NCBI GenBank assembly: GCA_002269645.1
Contig: NIVC01002246.1
Span: 124,001-188,000 of the forward strand
Source: Macrostomum lignano
Taxonomy: Eukaryota
Direction: 5' to 3'
Length of the DNA stretch: 64,000 bases
Under the pieces are notes generated by a model. That model did not search any database. It was not told the DNA's origin and saw only the letters and a program-made list of their open reading frames with translations. Numbering within the stretch: the first letter of the stretch is position 1; each line of letters begins with the position of its first letter. Position numbers and translations under genes: made by a program. Positions 1-17,595 of the stretch are shown one piece after another.

Positions 1-83
1 GATCTCAGACTCTGTTATCCGATATCGCAGTTCAGAGCCGCGTCTGACTCATTTAATTGAATCTGGAACTCGCCAAACCCCAG

Positions 84-575
84 ACGCCAGACGCCGGTCA
101 GCACCTGCGGCACAAACGCGGCGGCAGCAGCCTGCTGGCCAAGCTGAACGAACTCGCCTTGATCGGCCGCCTCGCGCCCTGCAGCCCCGCCTCGCCCGTT
201 GCCCCCGCTGCTGCCACCGAGTTCAACAGTCCATCAGCTGCTGGCTCTGATGAGCGTCAGCGTCCAGACGGTCAATCGTCGCTGTACCGCCAGCTGAACT
301 CCCCCGCTGCCGCAGTCAGTAGTGCCAGCGGCAACAACGGCTACTCGTCAGCTAGCGGGGCATCTCCGGGATTCGATTCCAGGACCTTCCGCCGGCCGCA
401 TTCTCGCGGAGTCAGCGCCGGAACCGCGCCGATTGGTGCTGGAGGCGGAGGCGGAGGCTACGAGGATTCAGCTGACGGTGGCATCGGGGCATCGACGAGC
501 TCGCAGGAGCGGCTGCACGACCTCACGGATGTGCAGATTGTGGCCAAGATGCAGATTGATGCGCTGAGGCAGCAG
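84..575 (+). CDS. SLAIN: SLAIN motif-containing protein, internal exon (gene starts upstream of the window; 5' boundary approximate)
   Basis: Encodes LHDLTDVQIVAKMQIDALRQQ, matching the conserved SLAIN1/2 block DLTDVQIMARLQEESLRQ. Donor CAG|GTGGGT at 575/576, phase 0. In-frame TAA at 54-56 means the exon starts after it; candidate acceptor CCCCAG at 83. Confidence 0.75.
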
Positions 576-610
576 GTGGGTTTTAAGGATGCCGTGCTGC
601 GGGATGGAGG

Positions 611-1537
611 GGTTGAGGGTTCAGGGTTGTGAAGGGTTGAAGGGTCAGTGTTGGGAAGGGTTGAAGGGTCAGTGTTGGGAAGGGTTGAAACGGAAGGGTC
701 AGGGTTGTGAAGTGTTGAAAGGTCAGGGTTGTGAAGGGTTGAAGGGTCAGGGTTGTGAAGGGTTGAAGGGTCAGGGTTGTGAAGGGTTTAAGGGTCCGGT
801 TTGTGAAGGGTTGAAGGGTCAGGGTTGTGAAGGGTTGAAGGGTCAGTGTTGTGAAGGGTTGAAGGGTCAGGGTTGTGAAGGGTTGAAGGTTCAGGGTTGT
901 GAAGGGTTGAAGGGTCCGGTTTGTGAAGGGTTGAAGGGTCAGGGTTGTGAAGGGTTTAAGGGTCCGGTTTGTGAAGGGTTGAAGAGTCAGGGTTGTGAAG
1001 GGTTGAAGGGTCCGGTTTGTGAAGGGTTGAAGGGTCAGGGTTGTGAAGGGTTGAAGGGTCAGTGTTGTGAAGGGTTGAGGGGTCAGTGTTGGGAAGGGTT
1101 AAAAACGGAAGGGTCAGGGTTGTGAAGGGTTCAAGGGTCAGGGTTGTGAAGTGTTGAAGGGTCAGGGTTGTGAAGGGTTGAAGGGTCAGGGTTGTGAAGG
1201 GTTGAAGGGTCAGTGTTGTGAAGGGTTGAAGGGTCAGGGTTGTGAAGGGTTGAAGGGTCAGGGTTGTGAAGGGTTGAAACCGAAGGATCAGGGTTGTGAA
1301 GAGTTCAAGGGTCAGGGTTGTGAAGTGTTGAAGGGTCAGGGTTGTGAAGGGTTGAAGGGTCAGGGTTGTGAAGGGTTGAAGGGTCAGGGTTGTGAAGAGT
1401 TGAAGGGTCAGTGTTGTGAAGGGTTGAAGGGTCAGGGTTGTGAAGGGTTGAAACCGAAGGATCAGGGTTGTGAAGGGTTGAAGGTTCAGGATTGGGAAGG
1501 GTTGAAGGGTTGGGTTGTGAGGGTTGAAGGGTCAGGG
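611..1537 (+). repeat. 24-nt G-rich intronic minisatellite (GGGTCAGGGTTGTGAAGGGTTGAA)n
   Basis: Direct tandem repeats; they account for the spurious GQGCEGLK ORFs. Confidence 0.95.
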
Positions 1538-1594
1538 AAATCCAACCTATAACAGTAGCAAAAGTCAGCTTGGACTTTTGATGCACAATGGCAG

Positions 1595-1912
1595 GTGAGT
1601 CGGTCGCGTTCGCAGCAGAGCATAGCCAGTTCGACCGGCTCAACTGACGATTTGGCAGCCTCTCAGCCGCATCAGCAGCAGTCGCACCAGCTGGCAGTGG
1701 GGGCGGCAGGACCGGCTGGGCTGCACCACTCGGCACCTGAGAGCGGGCATCAGCGGCAGCGCAGGACTTTGCCAGCCAGGCCGGCCCAGCACCAGCTGCA
1801 GCACCAGCGGCCCTCGAGCGCGATGGGCCAGGCGTACAGAGGCGCCTCAGCTGCTTCTGCCCAGCAACAGCAGCAGTATCACCATCAGCAGCAGGTGCTG
1901 GCTCAAAGTGCC
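1595..1912 (+). CDS. SLAIN: SLAIN-like protein exon (VSRSRSQQSIASS...AQSA)
   Basis: Acceptor GCAG at 1594, donor GTATGT at 1913, phase 0 at both ends; continues RQQ|VSRS as in SLAIN proteins. Confidence 0.7.
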
Positions 1913-2002
1913 GTATGTTTGTAGTTCATTATTGTGTTTAAACAGCACATTTTAACAGCGCTTGAGTCTAAACTGTGCATTCACTGACTCCCTTCACCGC
2001 AG

Positions 2003-2281
2003 CTGCCATCTCGGCCTGCCTCCGTCACTCCGGTTGTCGCCCAGCAGCGGTCCAGCATGCTGCCCAGGCCGAACCAGACCGCCTCCCCGGTGCCACCCGG
2101 CGGCGGTGGCGGCGTTGGCGGCGCCAGACGGGCCTCCAGCGGCCAGATGGGTTTGCCGCGGCCTGTGCAGCAACAAGGCGGCCGAATTCCCTCGCCTCTG
2201 CGTAGTGGCGCCGCCGGCAGGGCCTCAGTGGATCACGGAGCCTCGCTGAATGGCGGCTTCGGCTATCATGGCCAGCGCTGA
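2003..2281 (+). CDS. SLAIN: SLAIN-like protein last exon with SxIP-like motifs (SMLPRP, GLPRP, GRIPSP)
   Basis: Acceptor TTCACCGCAG at 2002 after a 90-nt intron with a CTGAC branch-like motif; in frame with ORF 2057-2281; stop TGA at 2279-2281. Confidence 0.7.
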   Translation: MPSRPASVTPVVAQQRSSMLPRPNQTASPVPPGGGGGVGGARRASSGQMGLPRPVQQQGGRIPSPLRSGAAGRASVDHGASLNGGFGYHGQR

Positions 2282-3026
2282 CCCGTCTACATCTGCCGAT
2301 ATGTTGTGTAAATAACTTTTTGTGTAGAAAATTAATTATTATTTTAAATGGTGTGTTTTAAATAGAGAAAATTCAAAATTAATTATAGAATAACTTATTA
2401 CCTCTGTTTCTACCCATGTGTTCTAATATACTTTTAGACTGATGACGTCACTGATGAGTGATGACGTCACTGATGAGTAATGAATGATTAAAAAATAAGC
2501 ATGTTTTGTTTGTTTGTCGGCAAGGTATCAATACTGTAGTGGAAGTTATTTTGAATTCAATTTTATTCATTGGTGGTTATTTAATTTTTATCTACAGCTG
2601 CACATACTGTTACTGCACTACTGACTAAAGCTGCATTAGTAGTATATGCATTGATTTTTTGTTAACAATTGAATGCAAAGCGCCCCAAAGATTCAAGCAG
2701 TAGTCAGCTATGAATATTATCCTATTAAATTGTCCGTCTGTTTTTTTACAAAATGTTTTATTGGCGATAATTATGATTTTCTACATAATTTTTTTATCCT
2801 CATTTCCGTGTCGATTTGTTTTCTTGGCTTACTACTTGAGGTAGTATGAGTTGTTTTCAATTTTTTGTTTATTTTTAGTTGATCTGATCACTGGGTCAGA
2901 TTTTATCGCGAAGTTCTGTTTTACCTACCGTCTGACTGCTTTAGAATATCCTGCTGTTGAGCTTTATTCGTTCGTCTGTGTGATTAAACTGGACAATTCT
3001 CAATTTTACTTGTATCTCATTTTTTG

Positions 3027-5246
3027 TCTGTAATAATCAGCTGTCAGAGCAGTCTGTAATCAGCTGTCAGAGCAGTCTGTAATTAGCTGTCAGAGCAGTC
3101 TGTAAGCAGCTGTCAGAGCAGTCTGTAATCAGCTGTCAGAGCAGTATGTAATTAGCTGTCAGAGCAGTTTGTAATTAGCTGTCAGAGCAGTCTGTAAGCA
3201 GCTGTCAGAGCAGTCTGTAATTAGCTGTCAAAGTAGCCTGTAATCATCAACTGTCTAAGTAGTCTGTGATTACTTGTCGGAGCAGTCTGTAGTTATCTGT
3301 CAGCAGTCTGTAATTAGCTGTCAAAGTAGCCTGTAATCAGCCGACAAAGTAGTATGTAATTAGCTGTCAGAGTAGTCTGTAACTACCTGTCGGAGCAGTC
3401 TGTAAATATCTGTCAGCAGTCTGCAATCGGCTGTCAAAGCAGTCTGTAATCGGCTGTCAAAGCAGTCTGTAATCGGCTGTTAAAGCAGGCTGTAATCGAC
3501 TGTCAGAGCAGTCTGTAATTTACTATCAGAGCAGTCTGTAAGCAGCTGTCAGAGCAGTCTGTAAGCAGCTGTCAGAGCAGTCTGTAATTAGCTGTCAGAG
3601 CAGTCTGTAATCAGCTGTCAGAGCAGTCTGTAAATATCTGTCAGCAGTCTGCAATCGGCTGTCAAAGCAGTCTGTAATCGGCTGTTAAAGCAGGCTGTAA
3701 TCGACTGTCAGAGCAGTCTGTAATTTACTATCAGAGCAGTCTGTAAGCAGCTGTCAGAGCAGTCTGTAAGCAGCTGTCAGAGCAGTCTGTAAGCAGCTGT
3801 CAGAGCAGTCTGTAATTAGCTGTCAGAGCAGTCTGTAATCAGCTGTCAGAGCAGTCTGTAATTAGCTGTCAGAGCAGTCTGTAATTAGCTGTCAGAGCAG
3901 TCTGTAATTAGCTGTCAGAGCAGTCTGTAATTAGCTGTCAGAGCAGTCTGTAATTAGCTGTCAGAGCAGTCTGTAAGCAGCTGTCAGAGCAGTCTGTAAT
4001 CAGCTGTCAGAGCAGTCTGTAATTTACTGTCAGAGCAGTCTGTAAGCAGCTGTCAGAGCAGTCTGTAAGCAGCTGTCAGAGCAGTCTGTAATTGCCTGTC
4101 AAAGTAGCCTGTAATCATCAACTGTCTAAGTAGTCTGATTACTTGTCGGAGTAGTCTGTAGTTATCTCTCAGCAGTCTGTAATTATCTGTCAGCAGTCTG
4201 TAATTAGCTGTCAAAGTAGCCTGTAATCAGCTGTCAAAGTAGTATGTAATTAGCTGTCAGAGTAGTCTGTAACTACCTGTCGGAGCAGTCTGTAATTACC
4301 TGTCAGAGCAGTCTGTAAATATCTGTCAGCAGTCTGTAATCGGCTGTCAAAGCAGTCTGTAATCGGCTGTTAAAGCAGGCTGTAATCGACTGTCAGAGCA
4401 GTCTGTAATTAGCTGTCAGAGTAGTCTGTAGCTACCTGTCGGAGCAGTCTGTAATTACCTGTCAGCAGTCTGTAAATATCTGTCAGCAGTCTGTAATCGG
4501 CTGTCAAAGCAGTCTGTAATCGGCTGTTAAATCAGGCTGTAATCGACTGTCAGAGCAGTCTGTAATTACCTGTCAGAGCAGTTTTTAATCGGCTGTTAAA
4601 GCAGGCTGTAATCGACTGTCAGAGCAGTCTATAATTTACTATCAGAGCAGTCTGTAAGCAGCTGTCAGAGCAGTCTGTAATTTACTGTCAGAGCAGTCTG
4701 TAATCGGCTGTTAAAGCAGGCTGTAATCGACTTTCAGAGCAGTCTGTAATCGGCTGTTAAAGCAGGCTGTAATCGACTGTCAGAGCAGTCTGTAATTTGC
4801 TATCAGAGCAGTCTGTAAGCAGCTGTCAGAGCAGTCTGTAAGCAGCTGTCAGAGCAGTCTGTAATTAGCTGTCAGAGCAGTCTGTAAATAGCTGTCAGAG
4901 CAGTCTGTAAGCAGCTGTCAGAGCAGTCTGTAATTAGCTGTCAGAGCAGTCTGTAAATAGCTGTCAGAGCAGTCTGTAAGCAGCTGTCAGAGCAGTCTGT
5001 AAGCAGCTGTCAGAGCAGTCTGTAAGCAGCTGACAGAGCAGTCTGTAAGCAGCTGTCAGAGCAGTCTGTAAGCAGCTGTCAGAGCAGTCTGTAAGCAGCT
5101 GACAGAGCAGTCTGTAAGCAGCTGTCAGAGCAGTCTGTAAGCAGCTGACAGAGCAGTCTGTAAGCAGCTGTCAGAGCAGTCTGTAAGCAGCTGTCAGAGC
5201 AGTCTGTAAGCAGCTGACAGAGCAGTCTGTAAGCAGCTGTCAGAGC
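3027..5246. repeat. 23-nt minisatellite (CAGCTGTCAGAGCAGTCTGTAAT)n, about 2.2 kb
   Basis: Visible tandem array with blocks of variant units. Confidence 0.95.
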
Positions 5247-5920
5247 TAATATGTGAATTGTTTTGCTTATTCTGTGCAAATATTCAAAGTTCATGCGCTG
5301 ACCTCTCTTCTCTCTATTCATTTATCTTGGCTTGCCGTGAGCTTCCGGACAAAACTACTCTGGGTAGTAGAGATCAATTTTTGTGTTATTAACAATTAAT
5401 ACGCATTGCATGCAGGTATGTGGATACTTTTTACTCTTGCTTATTGCCGCACAGAGCATATTTAGCCTGTTATTGCGTACTGCAAGCACTTTGACATGCT
5501 AATGAAGTTTACATAAATAAAATTATGCATATAGATTTTTAATAAATCTTTGCTTTCGATATGTGCCTCTATGCTACTAAAAGTAATGCTGGCAAATATT
5601 TAGTAGTTAATCTTTCATATCAGATTTTATGCTATTGTGTCGGTTTGAGAAATAAAGGTTAACAAGTACAGCCATGCGCTGGGGGACACGGGTCTCCGAT
5701 GACAAACTTGTTAGTTGCTGATTTCATGCGGGACAGGGCAGTGCCACTGAACATAGGTGTCATTTGACAGCCACATAATGTTCACGTTCTTAGAAGGGGC
5801 CGTGGCCTCCACAACAATTGCGCTTCTCGGAAAGCAGAATGAAAAATAGGCAACCAAGCTCAATGAATTGCAGGACCTCAACGATTGCCACCTCCTGTTG
5901 GACGGGGCATCCACACGCTA

Positions 5921-6997
5921 GGAGACAGGGGCGCCCCACCAAGAGACAGGGGCGCCCACCAAGAGACAGGAGCGCCCACCAGGAGACAGGGGCGCCCACC
6001 AAGAGACAGGGGCGCCCACCAAGAGACAGGAGCGCCCACCAGGAGACAGGGGCGCCCACCAAGAGACAGGGGCGCCCACCAAGAGACAGGGGCGCCCACC
6101 AAGAGACAGGGGCGCCCACCAAGAGACAGGGGCGCCCACCAGGAGACAGGGGCGCCCACCAAGAGACAGGGGCGCCCACCAAGAGACAGGGGCGCCCACC
6201 AAGAGACAGGGGCGCCCACCAAGAGACAGGGGCACCCACCAAGAGACAGGGGCACCCACCAAGAGACAGGGGCGCCCCACCAAGAGACAGAAGCACCCAC
6301 CAAGAGACAGGGGCACCCACCAAAAGACAGGGGCGCCCACCAAGAGACAGGGGCGCCCACCAAGAGACAGGGGCGCCCACCAAGAGACAGGGGCACCCAC
6401 CAAGAGACAGGAGCGCCCCACCAAGAGACAGGGGCACCCACCAAGAGACAGGGGCACCCACCAAGAGACAGGGGCGCCCCACCAAGAGACAGAAGCACCC
6501 ACCAAGAGACAGGGGCACCCACCAAAAGACAGGGGCGCCCACCAAGAGACAGGGGGCGCCACTAAAGAGACAGCGCGGCGCCAACCAAGGGATAAAGACG
6601 CCCACCAAGAGACAGGGGCGCCCTCTAAGAGACAGGAGGCGCCTATCAAGAGACAGGGGCGTCCACCAAGAGACAGCTAGGGGCGCCCACCAAGAGATAG
6701 GGGCGCCCTCTAAGAGACAGGAGGCGCCTATCAAAAGACAGGGGCGCCCACCAAGAGACATGGGCGCCCTCTAAGAGACAGGAGGCGCCTATCAAGAGAC
6801 AGGGGCGTCCACCAAGAGACAGCTAGGGGCGCCCACCAAGAGACAGGGGCGCCTACCAAGAGATAGGGGCGCCCACCAACATCGGCGCCCTCTAAGAGAC
6901 AGGAGGCGCCTATCAAAAGACAGGGGCGCCTACCAAGAGACGGGGGCGCCCACCAAGAGACAGGGGGCGCCTACCAAGAGACAGGGGGCGCCCACAA
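5921..6997 (+). repeat. 20-nt minisatellite (CCACCAAGAGACAGGGGCGC)n, copy 1
   Basis: Tandem array; the same unit occurs at 20215-21110 and inverted at 34255-34712. Confidence 0.95.
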
Positions 6998-7116
6998 GTG
7001 TAACTTATTTTATTTTTTAGGACAAACACGAGTACATGTACGTCATTCTTCAATAGCATACGCTACTGTATTGTATCTGACTGGCAAGCCTAAAAATCTG
7101 GATTGAATCAATCAAT

Positions 7117-9112
7117 TGATGAGGACGCACTTTTTCCCAAATCCCGCGCTAGCACATGGGCTCTAAACTTACTTGCCTACTAACAGTGGGCAGTGGGCAT
7201 TTTTATCCTTTTTCTGCGAATTTTCATAGAATCTATACTAGATATAATGTCTGGTCATACTAGTAGTCATAATAACATAGGCGCAGCTTTTTGGGTCATA
7301 AATCATCGCTTTCGAAGCTGATCTGACAGCCACCTGCGCCTCACTCAGTGTTGAAGCGGGCGCCAGATGGTCTGAGAGGATGCGGGCGGTAGCTTTTTTC
7401 TCATCATTTTGACAGGCCATCAAGATTTATGAGGTCAGAGCCTATTGTTCGGATTCACTCAAGCGTGTGACAGCTTTGACAGCTATGCGTTTTACCCCTA
7501 AAAGTACCTTGGGATTAGCGATTAGCGATTTCTCTTCATTATCTTCACTTTCTATTTAATAAGAGCTTTCTAATGTATATTTTTTCATTAATTTCTGTCA
7601 ATCCTACGCGAAAAGTCATAAATCATTTTGTTGCGATTTTGAGTGATTTATGGCCGCACCTGTCATCTTTTTACGACCCTGTGGGAACTGATAGGATCTC
7701 TCGGTCACGTGATTCTGGGTAGCAACGAGCTTAGCCAATCAGAAAATTCGGCGCTCATTTTAACAAAACGGCTCAGCCAATCAGAATCGACGTGTTCCGT
7801 TATAACAAACTGCGGTCCAGTTGGCGGCTATTTAAACCGGAGTTTTTGGCCCGCTCGGACGCAACTTCTTCTTACTTTGGCTCGGGCCCAGCGCGCAACT
7901 TCTGGTTCCCGGAGCACGACCGTCGTTTCTTGATCCCCGGATTGCAACTTCCCCCATCATCATCAAGGACGAGTCCCCCGGTCGACAGCAGCGAACATCC
8001 AGTTAAGAGCATCACCTGCTAGCTAACAGCGAAGATTGTGACAGCATCATCCCGAGTCTACAGCTGCAGAGCATCGAGCCGATTCGGTCACTGTGGAATA
8101 CCTGGTCTCCGGCTGTTGAGTTTCTGATTGGTTGGGTGAGAGGCTACCTAGACTTGCTTGATTGGGTGATCCCTTTTCTGTCCCCTGTTGCAGTAGCTGA
8201 ATTAGGCGCACACTTTTGCTCATTTTGTTCAGTAGTGCTGTTGCTGAGGCAGGAATCATTCAATAATACTGCCAGTAGTCTAAGACTCCAATTCAATCTA
8301 AAGTGTGAAGTGAATTAAGGAGAAGGTTAAAAAAAACAGTTATCTTTGTCGGCTTTATTTCTTTGTTCGCCGATGGCTCAGATGAGTAGCTAAGCTAGTA
8401 GGCGCCGGTCACAGTGGACCAATGGCAAGGCAGTTCTCAGTCGACCAATCTAACAAATCAGTGAGCAAAACTGCCAAAAGTGCAGAATCGGCGCCAGAGA
8501 TGTACTTTGTGCACTCAGGGTAGCCAAGCGGCTCGGGTAAATGAATCATGCGGTCTCTGAAGTTCGAGTTAGCCTATCATCAGCGCTATGAGAGGCTAGT
8601 TGGCGCGTTGAAGGCTAAAAGTACATATCTTCGTATTTAGCAATGTAATAGTACATGTAGCTACCCCATAGACTCGCCACCGCAAGAATCCCCTGCACAA
8701 GTCCCCTCTGTACCTGCATGGCCAACGCGATCTAGTCCCAGCAGTGTCCCTTATCATCGGCTATGACTTCGAGATTGACAGCAAAAAGACACTAGTTGGC
8801 AGGTAAGTGCAAAGCCCCTTCTAGTCGGAAGCCCGATTTCGAGAGTCCCGGTGTGGTGAGCCAGGGCGCACGGGCTGGTGGCAGCAAGTTAGTTGATCTG
8901 CGGATTAGCTAATTTCTACTTTCAAAATTCTCCCTGCTCGTCTCTCGCTGTCCCTCTCTTAGCTATAGGACCTAGACTGCTCGCCACACGATCAAGCTAC
9001 CATGGGGCTGACCATCTGACAGGAGTGGGGGGCCAGGTCTCTAATTGATTTATTTCTGAGCCTGAGGCTCGAAGGCTTCCCTAACAAGGAGCCCGAAGGT
9101 CGAAACCCATCA
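7117..9112 (+). repeat. 5' LTR (1996 bp)
   Basis: Direct repeat of 15531-17527; identical small ORFs in the track at offset 8414. Confidence 0.97.
7705..7836 (+). promoter_or_regulatory. Putative LTR U3 promoter: E-box GTCACGTGAT, two AGCCAATCAG CCAAT boxes (7735, 7777), TATTTAAA (7829); repeated in the 3' LTR at +8414
   Basis: Motif order and spacing typical of NF-Y/TATA Pol II promoters; no transcript evidence. Confidence 0.5.
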
Positions 9113-9114
9113 AA

Positions 9115-9132
9115 TGGTGGCAGCGGTGGGAT
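9115..9132 (+). other. Primer-binding site TGGTGGCAGCGGTGGGAT, complementary to the 3' end of tRNA-Leu (AAG/TAG type)
   Basis: Starts 2 nt after the LTR end; reverse complement ATCCCACCGCTGCCA+CCA is the 3' end of metazoan tRNA-Leu(AAG/TAG). Confidence 0.85.
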
Positions 9133-11641
9133 ATGGTAAACACTAGCCGGTAAGAAGTGGTAAAGTGCTCACCGGTAGTGATAGCTGGTAAATGGCAAAT
9201 TGTGACAATAATAAAATCGAGTTGCGCCGTTTAGATTTCAAAATTGGGAATTTAGGTTTCTTATTAGATTACTGTAAGTAGTCAGTTGCGATAGCTTTTC
9301 AAGTCTGAGTTATGAGAGTCCAAAAATGCACAAAAAATTTATGCTACTGGAACCAAAAAAATTACTAGTATGAATTGCTTATCATTAAATGCATGCCTAT
9401 TCAAAAAAAAAATCTACCAAAAAAATTATAAAATTCAAAAAGCCAGAGTATATAAAAAAAAATCAACCCCGCACATATAACTCTCTCAGCTTGATCAGTT
9501 ATCTAGGCTCTCTGCTTAGTTCTCCAGTTTTGATTTCAGCCAGCTAATTATGCGGAAAATAGAGACTTAGGATAGTTCTTGTACTTTTGCTAAACAGAAA
9601 AGTTTCGAACTGATCACTCGAAATTAAGCTATTAATTTTTGTCGTGTAGACAAGAGGCCATTATCCGAATGATAATGCTTCCTCGGCCAAAACGTTCATT
9701 ATAGAATGCTGACAGCGCTCGTAGTTTTTGTCTTGTTTGCAAAATTTAGAATCAGGCAGCTTTTTGGATGTGCGAAGCCTTGGTTTCATACGCAGGGCCT
9801 CACGGGTTTTGGGTTCAAAGGTTATACTCTGGAGCAGATTAGTACGGGACAGTCGGATTAGCGTACTGTGTGATTATAGTATCATTTCGATTTAAATCGG
9901 GGTGTTCTATCTGAGTGCTTCTCCGAATTGTTGTCCGCTATTCGGGCTTTGGTGGTATAAATCGCCTTAAGTGGCAACGGAGAGCTCAAATTCCCACCGC
10001 AATTCTCGGTATTCCGGCTAACAATGGCAAGTGCTGTGCCGTTGGGCCTCTGGATGCGCTGGGTCAGACATCCATGTCCTGAAAAATATGTCTGGGGTTG
10101 ATGGCTACCGGAACGCGAGAACAGCCACGCTACTTTGGGTTTGGGTACAGAATTGTGAGGTCTGAAGTTACTTTAAGTTCGTACATTTACCATCTGCTTA
10201 GCCTAGGAGTCTGGGAAGTGTGTAGGTATTACTTTCAGTAGTACAGTTTGCCAGTGCACAAGTAATTTTTCCTGGTTGCGGAATTTAGGGTTTGGAAGTT
10301 TGCTTTTGCTCTTTTGGTTCTTTCTTAGAATCGGAGGGGTATCTAATGTAAATACAGTAAGGAAAGCGGAGAGAATTACCCACACGGTGCCATGGTAGTA
10401 TGTGCGAATTCCAGCTACCGCTCTGGTTAACGATTCTGCAGAGAGCAGAAAACGCCGTGGCTATTCATTTTTATGATAGCAAGAGGAGGGGAGCGCAGCT
10501 TTGTCTGGACAGACTCTACTGACTCAAGACACAGATGTCTTCTGTGGTTCGCCGCTATAAAAATACCCGACCCGATAACGTAGGGTCATAATATTTGACA
10601 AACTTTCCTGCTGCCCATAGCTTTTTCTATGATCAAAAGTCTTAGGGACCGTGCCATAAGGTTTTGTTGCGGAGTGAACACTACACTACGGACCTGCTTA
10701 ACTCCTTGTGTATTATCTGTCTGTTCGCGAGTATCGTATATTAGGTGTAATCCGCCCTCACCGGTCAATGCTGACGAAAGCTACACAGAGGGGCCACTGG
10801 GCGCGCTGGGTCAGACGTCCAAGTTCCGCTAAAAGATCAGCCTTGATGGGGATTGTGAATCTGTCTAGCCGTAGCAGCACCCGGACGGTTTCCTAGTGGC
10901 GATACCACGCAGGAGAGCTCTGATACACATGAGGTGCCCACATATTGGCGCCTGCAATTTAGACTAATGAGAGCTGATGAGACCCTCCATGATTAACTAG
11001 CCCATCAAAATTATTCGGAAGCAAAAAGAGCCGCTCAGAGAGAAAGAGAGACTGAGACTGTAGTAGCCTGCGGAAAGCTGTGGCCTTAGCCCAGTTGAGA
11101 ACCAGTGAGTTTAAAAGCAGCAATTCGAGAAAATCCGAGATCGGATTCAAGGCAGAGACAGAAGGATTTTTAGGTGTGAAAAAATTTGAGTCAAGTGTGA
11201 CTGCGGTGTGAGTGGAATAAGTGAAGTTTCCGCTTCGTTGGTTTTTGCATATTTTTCCATTTTTGTGCTGTGTTTGCGATCATTATCGCAAGCCCCGCGC
11301 TCGTATTGTACGCTTTTTGTATATAGATCGCGTATCTTTTGCTTATTTGCGTGTTTTATGCTTTTTGCTTATTTTTGCTTGTAATTTATTGTTTTAGCTT
11401 TGAGCTCCCCAACTCGCGGTGCTCAACCCCCCATTGCTTACTTGTGTCAAAACCCTACCCCAGTTAGGCTTTTTGCACAATCTCCCCCCTTCCCCCCCCA
11501 TTCGATTCGATTCATTGCCATTGTCTTGCTTTGAAGCAGACACCCAATTTCGGCTAGTAGCCAATTGCATTCATTTTTTCCGCCCCGGTTCAGATTTTCA
11601 TCCTTTAGTTCTGTCCCGGCAACTGGTGTTGTGCCCGAACT

Positions 11642-13000
11642 ATGGAAACATGTAATTCCAGTACCAGTAAGTCAGGAGGTAGAGGCAGAAGAGGTAGAGG
11701 GAATAGGAACGGATCAGCAGCCGCCGCTGCAGCCGCCTGCGATTTTTCGTCCCAGGGCTCAGGCTCCCCCGAGAGATCAGAGTGCGGATCATCACCGCAG
11801 AGAGCCCCACCTCAACCCCAAGCCGCCGACATGGCAGCCCAATTAGCGCAAGCCCTTGCAGCTATTGGATTGGGCAGAGAGACACAGAGTGTCAAGATTA
11901 GCGTTGAGAAATTCAACCCAGCAGAATCCTGCTTCCCACAGTGGGTTGACAGAGTCAAATACAAACTCAGATCTGAAGAGATTAGGGACAGAGAGCAGAA
12001 GAAGAGCACAGTAATCTCGCTCCTCCCCCCAGATCTGCAGAGTCTTGCTATTGCCCTCCATCCCGGCCTTGACTTCGAAGAATTCATAGAAAGGTTAGGT
12101 CGCCAGGTAGGAGAGGCCAGTTCAGAATTAGCGAAGAGGAACAAAGTCCGGAATTTGAAACAGAAAGCAGGCCAGAATCACCACGCCTACTCGGCCATGG
12201 TGTGTAGTGTGATAGCTTCTGCTTACCCCGACATGAGTCCTAGACAGTTAGAGTCGGAGGTGATCTTCGCCTACTTGGAAACGGCTGATATTGCCCCAGA
12301 TGTGCGCAAGTCGCTGCTAGGGCAACAGTTTCGCAGCATTGATGAAGTGCTGGCAGCACAGCAGAATCTCCAAGAGGCAGATGAGATTTCCCGGCGCTTA
12401 GCGCGAGACCAGCCCAGGTATGATCAGCGTAGGGACGATAGAAACAGAGATCAGAATCGCCCCAGCGACAGAGAATATCAACGCAGGTGGGTCCGCATGC
12501 TAGAGTCGGAGGAAGGAAGGGAAGTAGAAGAGGCATTGACAGATTTACAGCAGCGCCAAAACAGCCTTGATGAAACCGTCGGCAAGATTTACGGCGCTAT
12601 GAGCCAGGTTGCGGAGAGGATTGATCAGGCCATGATGAGCCACTCAGATCATTGGGAGGGAGACCTCACCGTGGTAGAAGATACTGAGCGAGCTAGCCAA
12701 CCGCCTGAGGGCAAGTCCCCGCCCCCCTCATCTCAAAATCTGTCAGAGAAGCCCGCGCTACAGAGGCAGAATGCGATTTATGGTGACCCGGCCAAGCAGA
12801 TTGAAAAAACTGAGATTTACCGGCCCCCGCAGTTGCGCAACAGTGCACGCGCGCGCCCGCCTCCCCTGCGTGTTCCTACCCAGGGAGAGAGCAGAGTAGG
12901 AGAAGAAAGCTGGAGCCCCCCGCCAACCCCGGCGCCTGGAGCGCAGAGACAGCGGCCCTCTTTCTATCTTCCGTCTGGGCCAGCCGGTTCGGAAAACTGA
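11642..13000 (+). CDS. gag: Retrotransposon Gag-like capsid protein (452 aa), no CCHC zinc knuckle
   Basis: Intact ORF with good start context (AACTATGG); capsid-like core (KFNPAESCFPQWVDRV...RNLKQKAGQNHHAY); lies between PBS and protease. Confidence 0.8.
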   Translation: METCNSSTSKSGGRGRRGRGNRNGSAAAAAAACDFSSQGSGSPERSECGSSPQRAPPQPQAADMAAQLAQALAAIGLGRETQSVKISVEKFNPAESCFPQWVDRVKYKLRSEEIRDREQKKSTVISLLPPDLQSLAIALHPGLDFEEFIERLGRQVGEASSELAKRNKVRNLKQKAGQNHHAYSAMVCSVIASAYPDMSPRQLESEVIFAYLETADIAPDVRKSLLGQQFRSIDEVLAAQQNLQEADEISRRLARDQPRYDQRRDDRNRDQNRPSDREYQRRWVRMLESEEGREVEEALTDLQQRQNSLDETVGKIYGAMSQVAERIDQAMMSHSDHWEGDLTVVEDTERASQPPEGKSPPPSSQNLSEKPALQRQNAIYGDPAKQIEKTEIYRPPQLRNSARARPPPLRVPTQGESRVGEESWSPPPTPAPGAQRQRPSFYLPSGPAGSEN

Positions 13001-13008
13001 GAGTAGGG

Positions 13009-13503
13009 ATGGGTGGCGCCCACACTCACCCCTCTTCTGGACTTTTAAGGGCAAATTTAGTAAACTGTGGCAAAAGGAAAATGAATCTTGTACCCGATTT
13101 CATTGTCCCTAGGAAGTCTGTAACATTTAGAAGCTCTCGAGCTGATGTTTATGTAAAAGTTCAAGTAGAGAGATTGCCAGTCCGAATCTTAATCGATTCT
13201 GGGTCGGCAGTTTCCATCTTACCCTTCAAAGACTTCGTGGCGGCCACTAACGATGATATGGACAGGTTGGAGGCCCCTACAGTTTCTATCTATTCCTATA
13301 GCGGGCATAGACTGGAGATTGTGGGTCAATCTAAGCTGACAGTCATCTTAGGCAGTGAGACCATGCCTGTCATGTTCCTGATTGCCAGTGACCCCGGCAC
13401 GAGGCCTCTGTTGGGCAACTCTTTCCTCGCAGCAGCACCTGCTGTGTTGGATTACCACACTAGAAATCTATTAGTATTGGGGCAAATGCTCCCATTTTGT
13501 TGA
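13009..13503 (+). CDS. Retropepsin-like aspartic protease; frame open from 12787, -1 relative to gag
   Basis: Catalytic motif ILIDSGSAVSIL, flap-like YSYSG, C-terminal PLLGNSFL; clean stop after QMLPFC. Confidence 0.88.
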   Translation: MGGAHTHPSSGLLRANLVNCGKRKMNLVPDFIVPRKSVTFRSSRADVYVKVQVERLPVRILIDSGSAVSILPFKDFVAATNDDMDRLEAPTVSIYSYSGHRLEIVGQSKLTVILGSETMPVMFLIASDPGTRPLLGNSFLAAAPAVLDYHTRNLLVLGQMLPFC

Positions 13504-15514
13504 CTTCCTTGAGAACTCTGAAGGTCGGGGGCCCGATTCGCTTTTCCCCTTGCTTATCCTCTGCTAGATCCGGTTTATTTCGTAAAAGTATTATAACAGG
13601 TTGGACGTATAGAGGGAATAGATGAAATCAGTTAATTAGGGAGAATTCTACGTAATCTTTCGATTAAGTCGTTCGGCTCAAGTGATTAGTTAGCGAACAG
13701 TACCTATATTTATATGTTCAACTTTTAACCAAGTTTTTGTCATGCCGGAGCAAAATTCGAACTCCCTATTTTTCTTTTTTTTGTGCTGCCATGCCCCTTG
13801 TAAATATATCCTCTTATTGCGTGAACTATTGCTTTCTCATACTGTCTTTTGTACCCCCCGATTCCCCTGTGAATATCCCCCGGTGCTTTAAAAATGCGTT
13901 TTTTTTCTACCAGTATATTTATACTCAATGTTGTGCCATTATTTATCTCCGCGTATTTCTCTCTCTGTTGTGTCATTGCTTATTTTGTCGTGCCTAATTT
14001 CTTCTTTGCTCATTTTTTCTTTGTAAAAAGTTCGTCAAATGGTGGCGGAAACAATATGTTGTGTGCGTGAATGTGACTGCTTGCTTATTGTGCTTAATTT
14101 GTCGTGAGTGCTTTCGAAATTAAATGTGAAACTGAACCTTGGTTTGAGTTAAGTTTGAAACTGAAATTTAGGACTTCTCGTGTTACTAAACTCACTGAGC
14201 CAAGGCGAAGAAAGGGATCAATGATGAGCGAATTAGGTAATTAATATAGAAGAATACTAGGCATAATTAAACTAATAAAAGTCTTAAATAAGGTACGAAT
14301 GGTCCACCTGAATTAATACGAAATTCTAATTGTACTCGAAAACTTAACTCGCGGCCGTGCGATACTACTGACATGTAGTAATACTGAGTGTAAAGCAAAA
14401 TAGGATTGTGTGAATTAAATTTGAAAGTGAATGCGATTGAAGCGGAGTCTTGAGGACAAAAATCTTTGAAAGGACTTTTAAAATTTAACAATAGTGCTCA
14501 AAATTGTTCTGCCTCTTATCTGAAACTCTATTAATAATACATCTTAAAGTACCTATCTGCACAGCACTGAATGGGCAAGTGAGTAGGAGGGAGTGTACCC
14601 TGAAGGCTGCTGAGACTGTGGGATGGGTCTGGGATTATCCGATTGAGTAGAGTGTATGGTAGAGTATCACAGAGCTGAGATGAGACTTACCAGTTGAAGA
14701 TCGGAGGTCTGCAGTGGCTGGCCTGGCTCGGTGCAAAACCGGCAAAGGTGGCAGTGGCGAAGCGCTGGCTGGCAAATCGGAGGCTGACGCAGGATTTGAA
14801 GATGAAAATCATAATTTGTGGATGACCTGAGTGGTCAGTCGCTTTTATCTCCCTGTGAACTCGAGGTGGTTGAGATCATCCTCCCCCAGCAGCGTCTCAG
14901 CCAGTCAGCAAAGATGACTCGAGGGTCCCTTAATCCTCTGAGGGTCGCCATTCGTCGGCTGCCGCCAGATGAGCACGGCAACCCCAGGCACGTGGACTCC
15001 ACAGGCGGGAGGGGAGAATGTGCAACGCATTTCCCAAGCTCCTCGCCCATCCTGGCTCGGGTCGGCCGCGCGGCGAAGGAATTAAGCCATCAAGAGGCTT
15101 AACAGGTAGAATCGAGACTGACTCGAACGCGAACAATGAAGCTTAGTCTCATTGAACATGCGCTGTTTATTCCATCTCGCACATTTTGAATTATACCTTC
15201 TCGCGCGGCAATAATTTATCTGTCTATTATCCCCTTACGTGTATCTCGCACTTGATACTGTATTTGCAATGCAATATTTAGTTGAAGCACCTTTCTCTTG
15301 ATCCCTCTCTTTCTTCAATCCTTCCCTTTCCCCAATTTCTTTCTCTTTTGGGATTTCCATTCTTGGGATGCGTATTAGTCTAATATTTTTAGTACCTATT
15401 TGTGAGTAACTATTTTTATTTTTTACTACTCTGTTCGATGCGCTAGCTGCGATTTTGTACAAAACTGCGCTCATTTTTCTTCTTTGTTTTTGAGTTAATC
15501 TGCGATCAACTCAC

Positions 15515-15526
15515 AAATAGGGGGGG
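15515..15526 (+). other. Polypurine tract (AAATAGGGGGGG) upstream of the 3' LTR
   Basis: Purine run ending 4 nt before TGATG at 15531. Confidence 0.7.
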
Positions 15527-15530
15527 CATA

Positions 15531-17527
15531 TGATGAGGACGCACTTTTTCCCAAATCCCGCGCTAGCACATGGGCTCTAAACTTACTTGCCTACTAACAG
15601 TGGGCAGTGGGCATTTTTATCCTTTTTCTGCGAATTTTCATAGAATCTATACTAGATATAATGTCTGGTCATACTAGTAGTCATAATAACATAGGCGCAG
15701 CTTTTTGGGTCATAAATCATCGCTTTCGAAGCTGATCTGACAGCCACCTGCGCCTCACTCAGTGTTGAAGCGGGCGCCAGATGGTCTGAGAGGATGCGGG
15801 CGGTAGCTTTTTTCTCATCATTTTGACAGGCCATCAAGATTTATGAGGTCAGAGCCTATTGTTCGGATTCACTCAAGCGTGTGACAGCTTTGACAGCTAT
15901 GCGTTTTACCCCTAAAAGTACCTTGGGATTAGCGATTAGCGATTTCTCTTCATTATCTTCACTTTCTATTTAATAAGAGCTTTCTAATGTATATTTTTTC
16001 ATTAATTTCTGTCAATCCTACGCGAAAAGTCATAAATCATTTTGTTGCGATTTTGAGTGATTTATGGCCGCACCTGTCATCTTTTTACGACCCTGTGGGA
16101 ACTGATAGGATCTCTCGGTCACGTGATTCTGGGTAGCAACGAGCTTAGCCAATCAGAAAATTCGGCGCTCATTTTAACAAAACGGCTCAGCCAATCAGAA
16201 TCGACGTGTTCCGTTATAACAAACTGCGGTCCAGTTGGCGGCTATTTAAACCGGAGTTTTTGGCCCGCTCGGACGCAACTTCTTCTTACTTTGGCTCGGG
16301 CCCAGCGCGCAACTTCTGGTTCCCGGAGCACGACCGTCGTTTCTTGATCCCCGGATTGCAACTTCCCCCATCATCATCAAGGACGAGTCCCCCGGTCGAC
16401 AGCAGCGAACATCCAGTTAAGAGCATCACCTGCTAGCTAACAGCGAAGATTGTGACAGCATCATCCCGAGTCTACAGCTGCAGAGCATCGAGCCGATTCG
16501 GTCACTGTGGAATACCTGGTCTCCGGCTGTTGAGTTTCTGATTGGTTGGGTGAGAGGCTACCTAGACTTGCTTGATTGGGTGATCCCTTTTCTGTCCCCT
16601 GTTGCAGTAGCTGAATTAGGCGCACACTTTTGCTCATTTTGTTCAGTAGTGCTGTTGCTGAGGCAGGAATCATTCAATAATACTGCCAGTAGTCTAAGAC
16701 TCCAATTCAATCTAAAGTGTGAAGTGAATTAAGGAGAAGGTTAAATCTAACAGTTATCTTTGTCGGCTTTATTTCTTTGTTCGCCGATGGCTCAGATGAG
16801 TAGCTAAGCTAGTAGGCGCCGGTCACAGTGGACCAATGGCAAGGCAGTTCTCAGTCGACCAATCTAACAAATCAGTGAGCAAAACTGCCAAAAGTGCAGA
16901 ATCGGCGCCAGAGATGTACTTTGTGCACTCAAGGGTAGCCAAGCGGCTCGGGTAAATGAATCATGCGGTCTCTGAAGTTCGAGTTAGCCTATCATCAGCG
17001 CTATGAGAGGCTAGTTGGCGCGTTGAAGGCTAAAAGTACATATCTTCGTATTTAGCAATGTAATAGTACATGTAGCTACCCCATAGACTCGCCACCGCAA
17101 GAATCCCCTGCACAAGTCCCCTCTGTACCTGCATGGCCAACGCGATCTAGTCCCAGCAGTGTCCCTTATCATCGGCTATGACTTCGAGATTGACAGCAAA
17201 AAGACACTAGTTGGCAGGTAAGTGCAAAGCCCCTTCTAGTCGGAAGCCCGATTTCGAGAGTCCCGGTGTGGTGAGCCAGGGCGCACGGGCTGGTGGCAGC
17301 AAGTTAGTTGATCTGCGGATTAGCTAATTTCTACTTTCAAAATTCTCCCTGCTCGTCTCTCGCTGTCCCTCTCTTAGCTATAGGACCTAGACTGCTCGCC
17401 ACACGATCAAGCTACCATGGGGCTGACCATCTGACAGGAGTGGGGGGCCAGGTCTCTAATTGATTTATTTCTGAGCCTGAGGCTCGAAGGCTTCCCTAAC
17501 AAGGAGCCCGAAGGTCGAAACCCATCA
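15531..17527 (+). repeat. 3' LTR (1997 bp)
   Basis: The only differences I found from the 5' LTR are AAA vs TCT (8332-8334 vs 16746-16748) and one extra A near 16931. Confidence 0.97.
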
Positions 17528-17595
17528 CAATCAATCAACGATAAAAACAACTAAATCAAAATTGCGCGTTTGGTTTAAATTTCATGAAAATCTAG

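Follow-up and report, generated by a model that had tools for sequence, protein, structure and literature searches.

Retroviral packaging signals lie between the PBS and gag, and in MLV this stretch holds the repeated stem-loops SL-A to SL-D (PMC5874298, accessible part). Among LTR retrotransposons, the wheat elements RLG_Sabrina_SA and RLG_WHAM encode Gag and protease alone and rely on a partner for RT and integrase, with a shared PBS; RLG_Wilma is described as autonomous, with a complete protein set, and has almost no DNA in common with its partners (PMC9744471, accessible part). RLG_Quinta is a Gag-only helper that shares LTR parts with RLG_Cereba. For this pair a mutualism has been proposed, and gag is exchanged through template switching. 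The dependence is one-way, since RLG_Cereba encodes its own protease (PMC11302176, accessible part).

The C-loop is an internal loop with a 3-nt long strand that starts with C, a free position 3, and 0-2 bulged nt opposite (accessible parts of PMC4551918 and PMC9516175). Egl-BicD reads two bulged stem-loops per RNA, kept in structure without being kept in sequence, one of them in a retrotransposon RNA (PMC13186709, accessible part).

The element described here lies in the window, meaning the whole analysed stretch of 64,000 nucleotides of Macrostomum lignano DNA. Its leader contains two copies of a predicted RNA module, each with a C-loop-type arm, a linker and a second hairpin. As in MLV, these are repeated stem-loops between PBS and gag, and some copies of hairpin 2 have C-GAC-G. 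Unlike in MLV, the module triloop is not conserved and there is no conserved palindrome or GACG tetraloop; the spacing between the modules is 750 or 380 nt, the PBS is distant, and no CCHC knuckle is seen in the window Gag. For the MLV signal, the accessible part of PMC5874298 mentions no C-loop junction. By analogy, the module would work like an MLV-type hairpin pair, but it is not one.

The internal loop has the same asymmetry as the C-loop in the RNA 3D Motif Atlas (IL_73276.5), the same third base C, and the same U-A and C-G closing pairs. It also has the same single bulge on the short strand, and sits within a hairpin with WC helices on both sides. A C-loop is a motif and not a function, and the non-canonical pairs and triples of the module are predicted from sequence only. 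The Egl-BicD signals differ in that they are single bent hairpins read at U-A pairs, with no C-loop or three-way junction in the accessible part of PMC13186709.

Like RLG_Sabrina_SA and RLG_WHAM, the window element has a partner that carries RT and integrase. Here, however, the pol-bearing partner is without protease, LTR and leader are 97-99% shared, and the split recurs in two sister families within one animal genome. In the literature covered, no mutually dependent retrotransposon pair was found, only the wheat helper systems; nor was a C-loop packaging signal in a retrotransposon or its leader.

Two complementary forms

The window element (7117-17527; all features given are on the plus strand) is a Ty3/Gypsy LTR retrotransposon that codes for gag and protease and nothing else. 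It is flanked by a CAAT target-site duplication (7113-7116 and 17528-17531). Its LTRs (TGAT...ATCA, 7117-9112 and 15531-17527) differ by 3 substitutions and about 1 indel, so the insertion is very recent. Two CCAAT boxes (7729-7786) and a TATA-like site (7829-7836) in the 5' LTR are, going by these motifs, its likely promoter. The PBS (9115-9132) is complementary to the 3' end of tRNA-Leu, and the 3 matching loci checked are all tRNA-Leu genes.

The non-coding leader is 2.5 kb long and contains 32 ATGs (9133-11641). The gag ORF (11642-13000) has 452 aa, is capsid-like with a weak PNMA match, and shows no CCHC knuckle. The aspartic protease frame, with a DSG active site, is at -1 relative to gag (12814-13503), and a candidate -1 frameshift heptamer, G GAA AAC (12991-12997), lies directly 5' of the gag stop with a hairpin behind it. 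A second family, introduced below, also has a candidate -1 heptamer in its gag/protease overlap, G GGA AAC (L087 about 7855). Such heptamers would yield Gag-PR, not Gag-Pol. No RT, RNase H or integrase follows 3' of the window protease frame. What follows is about 2 kb of non-coding DNA (13504-15530), common to both forms of the element and partly kept in a diverged subfamily; its stretch 13626-15530, shared with the pol-bearing form, has a polypurine tract at the end (about 15519-15526). The Ty3/Gypsy assignment is based on LTRs, TSD, PBS and PPT, with the RT-RNase H-integrase order taken from that form.

In both families, pyrimidine tracts and then an AG are found shortly 5' of the gag start (window 11560-11641; L087 6390-6455). 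Cis- or trans-splicing may take the leader out of the translated RNA. The surroundings of the window element are repetitive. Positions 1-7000 and 20000-64000 are packed with mini- and microsatellite arrays whose units are 4/8, 9, 20, 23 and 31 nt long, the insertion is about 100 nt from a 20-nt satellite, and most long ORFs listed in the window are repeat artefacts.

Searching with the leader brought up 27 matches: 16 full-length copies at 96-100%, and among the others several diverged subfamilies at 73-95%. These copy counts are lower bounds, and haplotype duplicates are possible (L018/L019 are identical; L025/L026 share flanks). Genes adjoining element copies (L100, L103) are presumably Polinton/Maverick-like, with DNA polymerase B, a packaging ATPase and a capsid-like protein. 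A solo LTR of the window family (95%) sits inside another Gypsy element (L198:3819-5810).

A protease search found a sister family, here family 2, with Gag 37% and protease 40% identical, the same PBS and a 2.3-kb leader. Apart from the PBS, BLAST detects nothing alike in the leaders of the two families. A 184-codon open frame (L087:3568-4119) lies toward the 3' end of the family 2 LTR; it is kept in several copies and has no Pfam match.

Both families consist of a gag+protease form (G) and a capsid-RT-RNase H-integrase form (P) that has no protease. The G and P copies are the window element; L137/L138 (C3095) and L139/L140 (C1757); and L087/L088 (C181), L141/L142 (C936) and L143-L146. LTRs are 2.0-2.2 kb. 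Across LTR and leader, G and P are 97-99% identical: the P copies, located via an RNase H search, match the window element at 98.3-98.8% (98-99% in the leader), and in the sister family the shared identity is 97.4-97.7%. The P coding region departs about 40 nt past the start codon and encodes a capsid paralogue, a beta-rich domain, RT, RNase H and integrase. The capsid domains of G and P are 22-24% identical. In family 1, the two P copies whose leader is of the window type both have their frame broken ahead of RT.

A protease profile run in six frames matched 0 of 6 P elements; as a control it found 3 of 3 held-out conventional elements (E 2e-19 or better). In the ESM Atlas, the domain before RT groups with unnamed eukaryotic clusters (0.94) and not with proteases (0.78 or less). 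Seven further close RNase H matches have no protease-search match in line with them, among 150 of 1069 protease candidates scored; the RNase H search likewise scored 150 of 3149 candidates. A complete element of the clade may be among the remaining candidates, and unrelated Gypsy families could supply the P forms with protease.

G is commoner than P: 14 G, 2 P and 4 unclassified in a set of 20, and 25 G and 5 P in a set of 30. P leaders nest among G leaders, with a clade of 3 G and 2 P at 98/96 support. Recurrent recombination between co-packaged RNAs would give just such near-identical leaders with diverged capsids. A two-component architecture is, on these data, likely.

No close relative was found outside this genome. 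Metagenome contigs contained none. Of the Gag protein searches, one gave 0 matches and another 2 at 21-22%. For the P-form polyprotein the best RT identity outside this genome is about 50%, and its capsid part has no match among the 120 sequences listed.

A duplicated RNA module in the leader

The first-pass annotation pointed to two 31-mers in the leader, 10044-10074 and 10791-10821. They are indeed identical at 27 of 31 positions, differing at 10049 (T/A), 10054 (A/G), 10055 (T/C) and 10070 (A/G), and three of these four differences lie in a 6-bp stem and keep its pairing (A-U to G-U; U-A to C-G). When the leader was shuffled 60 times with its dinucleotides kept, the top off-diagonal 31-mer reached 23 identities (mean 21). 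Genome-wide the 31-mer pattern turns up 29 times, each time inside a copy of one and the same element, and its reversed control 0 times. The accompanying words are also where they had been placed: TTCTCG at 10003, TTCCGG at 10012, CCGGAA at 10108 and CGAGAA at 10116 around copy A, TCAATGCTGA at 10765 and TCAGCCTTGA at 10837 around copy B, and the flanks CAATG (10022/10766) and TTGATGG (10098/10843).

The 31-mers turn out to be one arm of a module of about 70-90 nt, present as copies A and B. A 4-bp stem carries a C-loop-type internal loop of the form CCNCU*A(N)G, above which the upper stems vary; an A-rich linker then leads to a further hairpin, in which an A is bulged. There is no third copy in the window element.

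In module A, arm 1 (10044-10079) has its basal stem at 10044-47/10076-79, followed by the C-loop-type loop, the 6-bp stem, and an apical 3-bp stem with a triloop. The loop itself (C10048-U-C10050, with 10075 bulged) is closed by a C-G pair and by U10051-A10074. The linker (10080-10090) contains two adenines that are invariant in all aligned copies. Hairpin 2 (10091-10112) has a lower stem, the bulged A, a 4-bp upper stem and a triloop that is GAU in the window and GAC in other copies. Module B (10781-10868) reads as a three-way junction. Its closing helix is 10781-10788/10861-10868 with a 2-nt joint, AG; arm 1 is at 10791-10826 (loop C10795-A-C10797, with 10822 bulged) and hairpin 2 at 10838-10855 (bulged A10852). 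In B and both sister copies this closing helix, its pairs read from the sequences, shows A-U/G-C and C-G/U-A changes. Module A seems to sit in a larger junction.

Covariation was assessed on homologues within family 1. In an alignment of 12 rows from three subfamilies, the 22-pair structure is paired in 95.5% of 264 cells, and 11 pairs show two-sided change; because the rows are related, they count as about six independent types. Only 1 of 500 shuffles did as well, and slid partners reached at most 48% paired and at most 4 two-sided pairs. The basal 4-bp stem, which the first-pass annotation had not noticed, changes on both sides between copies, and in the apical 3-bp stem two pairs are switched on both sides among diverged copies. 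L025/L026, in which module B has a 4-nt insertion and no hairpin 2, were excluded from alignments A5 and A6 as decayed relics in a duplicated, fragmented region; with them included, the arm is still 93.6% paired, with 5 of 14 pairs two-sided.

With filters off, a covariance model built from family 1 alone (R1) has two sense-strand matches in the sister leader, one of 20.9 bits (E 8.6e-5) and one of 9.7 bits (E 0.097). With default filters both were missed. Among 100 kb of DNA from other Gypsy elements and the host, no full-length match to R1 exceeds 9.3 bits. The first sister match therefore stands out clearly, and the score of the second is no better than noise. This second match rests solely on its position, its exact loop and an 11-nt linker in common with the first. 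With the sister rows added (alignment A6, fitted to the model), 13 of 22 pairs are two-sided (0 of 500 shuffles); this joint figure rests on about eight independent module types, since the rows are related. Pairing then reaches 100% in the basal stem, where 3 of 4 pairs show two-sided change, and 94.5% in the upper stem. Different lineages have found different WC solutions for the basal stem, while the internal loop was kept.

That loop is present in 10 of 10 module copies listed, and the two linker adenines are likewise invariant. Position 3 of the loop is U, A, C or G, the bulge is U or A, and the other six positions do not vary. C2/A6 and C4/G7, the bases of the two predicted crossing pairs, are conserved in all ten. 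G-U pairs fill 44 of 273 cells, which argues for sense-strand RNA and not a DNA palindrome. In each family G and P alike carry both modules, which lie on the sense strand 3' of the PBS and 5' of gag.

The conserved core is thus this loop just below the stem plus the two linker adenines, and not the inner 12 nt, which had been called invariant. Among related copies those 12 nt come in three types. They show compensated change between subfamilies and are homogenised between A and B inside each: apical A and B agree at 12/12, 11/12 and 10/15 within subfamilies, against 6/12 for the window and the most distant subfamily. The window's apical type occupies both modules in 14 of 16 full copies, and one copy is a hybrid. 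Linker and hairpin 2 instead group by position (A/A 26-30/33, B/B 24-26/31, A/B 12-15/33). As the apical part groups by subfamily and the rest by position, the duplication is old, with repeated local conversion. Hairpin 2 of the second module is near letter-for-letter alike in both families, so the duplication likely predates their split. Its loops are GAC, GAU (window) and CAU (sister family). GAC is therefore not kept, and there is no conserved kissing loop. Apical loops across copies are GGU, UGU, UAA, UGG and UGA.

Some other proposed parts fared less well. The outer stem of copy B is 69.7% paired, which 47 of 500 shuffles equalled, so it is not conserved. For copy A, the outer helix TTCTCG/CGAGAA (10003-10008/10116-10121) is kept, 98% paired, but without two-sided change; together with a small hairpin (10022-10044) it may close module A. 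Its companion TTCCGG/CCGGAA also lacks two-sided change, and one of its pairs is broken in 3 of 9 rows. The flank TTGATGG stands in the window but reads TCGACGG in other copies, which looks like CpG decay. Module sequence conservation between subfamilies is 0.63-0.78, against up to 0.97 in the flanks. Since it is no better conserved than its flanks, an argument from sequence invariance fails; it is the structure that has been retained.

Folding energies do not favour the module in most copies. The minimum-energy fold is the module in 2 of 10 copies, and in the other 8 the module lies 2.2-6.5 kcal/mol above it (60-nt flanks), under a nearest-neighbour model that ignores base triples and ligands. 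Z-scores against shuffles are mostly unremarkable. A sequence/structure descriptor, composed after all copies were known, matches besides the modules once in 347 kb of background and once, spuriously, in a G+C-rich insert.

Several competing pairings were also seen. In module A (10012-10047, 10076-10113), an extension of the upstream hairpin competes with the basal stem and the outer TTCCGG pairing with hairpin 2, and both of these survive in diverged copies. In B, TGTAATCC competes with hairpin 2. Such competition could be a conformational switch. The word TGTAATCCGCC (10746-10756) is also found upstream of the second module in the sister family. It is complementary to the 3' strand of hairpin 2, a possible but weak alternative pairing without covariation.

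The core of the first-pass annotation, a duplicated and selected plus-strand RNA structure in an LTR-element leader, is borne out by covariation and by the recovery in the sister family. That the element is one half of a two-element system had gone unseen in that annotation. That the structure is real and under selection is very probable.

The conventional Gypsy elements examined, same-PBS ones included, have short leaders and no module. For the tRNA-Leu-primed comparison, 20 of about 35 non-family-2 PBS matches were covered, 10 of the 20 being scanned with model R2; those fetched families that have ORFs are conventional with short leaders. The best R2 match outside both families (16.2 bits) was rejected as a minisatellite. 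Five of these conventional families (L188, L189, L190, L197, L200) have an extra 340-520-codon ORF after integrase.

What the module may do

The reading preferred here, at slightly under an even chance, is that the module is a packaging or Gag-recognition signal that would let both RNAs enter one particle. It is in sense genomic RNA between PBS and gag, where retroviral packaging signals also lie (PMC5874298, accessible part), and in every form that needs packaging. It sits 0.9-1.8 kb from the PBS, farther than retroviral packaging signals do.

Under such a mechanism the module would fold as described, with the C-loop and linker adenines as a fixed three-dimensional core and the apical part free to vary. 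As neither form completes the cycle from its own RNA, packaging would work in trans and would need an explicit signal, in two copies for avidity or redundancy. G and P RNAs would be co-packaged, which could explain why the leaders are 98-99% identical though the capsids are only about a quarter identical. Matching apical loops of A and B inside a subfamily would arise by template switching between the two copies, and their likeness would be kept neutrally, or because one ligand reads both.

Other readings have to be weighed against this one. Perhaps the module is bound by a host protein as an RNA transport signal (nuclear export of unspliced RNA, nuclear import or motor-driven germ-line localisation), in two copies because its adaptor requires two. 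This is unlikely. A host ligand would account for an invariant core across families with 37% identical Gags, and the retroviral CTE is also built from duplicated loops. The conventional Gypsy elements of the same genome would need such a signal too, yet have no module. C-loops are nuclear-import signals in viroids (PMC9516175, accessible part), but their reader there is a plant protein. Egl-BicD carries I-factor retrotransposon RNA and requires two bulged stem-loops per RNA, sometimes hundreds of bases apart (PMC13186709, accessible part); compared with the Egl signals, which are read at U-A pairs, the arm differs in being short and rich in G+C. With 44 ATGs between the TATA-like site and the gag start, and a single kind of leader from which both forms have to be translated, the module might instead be part of an element for translation, be it an IRES domain, a shunt or a binding site for initiation factors, that takes ribosomes past the roughly 3.8 kb 5' region. 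A-rich three-way junctions do occur in viral IRESs. But between the end of the nearer module and the start codon there are still about 780 nt and 5 ATGs in family 1, and about 480 nt and 7 ATGs in family 2, and splicing could remove the upstream-ATG problem. Rfam searches on the element, the module region and the sister leader returned nothing below E 1, be it IRESs, ribozymes or others. A role in translation is decidedly unlikely.

The close match of apical parts inside two subfamilies, lost between them, would fit direct A:B or inter-RNA pairing, in which the hairpin arms open to extended duplexes, dimerise the genome and keep A and B alike; the first and third loop base could pair in such a duplex in 4 of 5 loop types. 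Yet the two apical parts of the sister family are unlike each other, the 10/15 subfamily has a non-pairing loop, and template switching alone also predicts homogenisation, which leaves this reading very unlikely. More improbable still is that the copies reflect neutral duplication plus gene conversion, a site acting at the DNA level, or a short uORF. A-B conversion is evident, and both window copies lie in the same frame of short uORFs. The structure is kept, however, where sequence cannot be aligned, G-U pairs occur on the sense strand alone, and outside the arm the low A/B agreement is not that of a longer decaying duplication. Covariation and the sister-family recovery already largely refute the neutral reading. 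The uORF reading was rejected: in 3 of 7 copies listed a frameshift interrupts the A uORF, and no start of a B uORF was found in the subfamily that has diverged most. A new self-cleaving ribozyme, akin to the ribozyme-like fold raised by the first-pass annotation, is highly improbable. The module is a small junction with conserved adenines, and the linker of module B resembles the J4/2 strand of HDV. HDV-like ribozymes have an invariant catalytic C in J4/2; here the sole candidate is not conserved, being U or absent in A, C and D and present solely in B copies. An HDV-type nested pseudoknot is unsupported, a candidate P3 pairing is broken in other copies, and a cut in mid-leader would sever the reverse-transcription template. 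Likeness to HDV, hammerhead or twister, judged by eye, was likewise unsupported.

Returning to the packaging signal, a wider version of this reading is possible, though rather doubtful: an obligately two-component ('segmented') animal LTR lineage, whose duplicated C-loop three-way junction co-packages both RNAs. One element would give Gag and the only protease, and the other a capsid-tagged RT-RNase H-integrase. The fast-changing apical loop would mark subfamily identity as a tag.

Packaging signals of Ty3/Gypsy elements are poorly defined, and the module is a compact, covariation-supported candidate for one. Its predicted 3D motif is recognisable, and nature provides it in two copies and in a distant variant, which makes it open to direct probing. 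The gene split has apparently been kept across two families whose Gags are 37% identical. The published helper systems found, in the accessible parts of their sources, have a fully autonomous partner. Mutual dependence, if true, would be a retroelement parallel to segmented viruses, with selection in trans replacing cis-preference.
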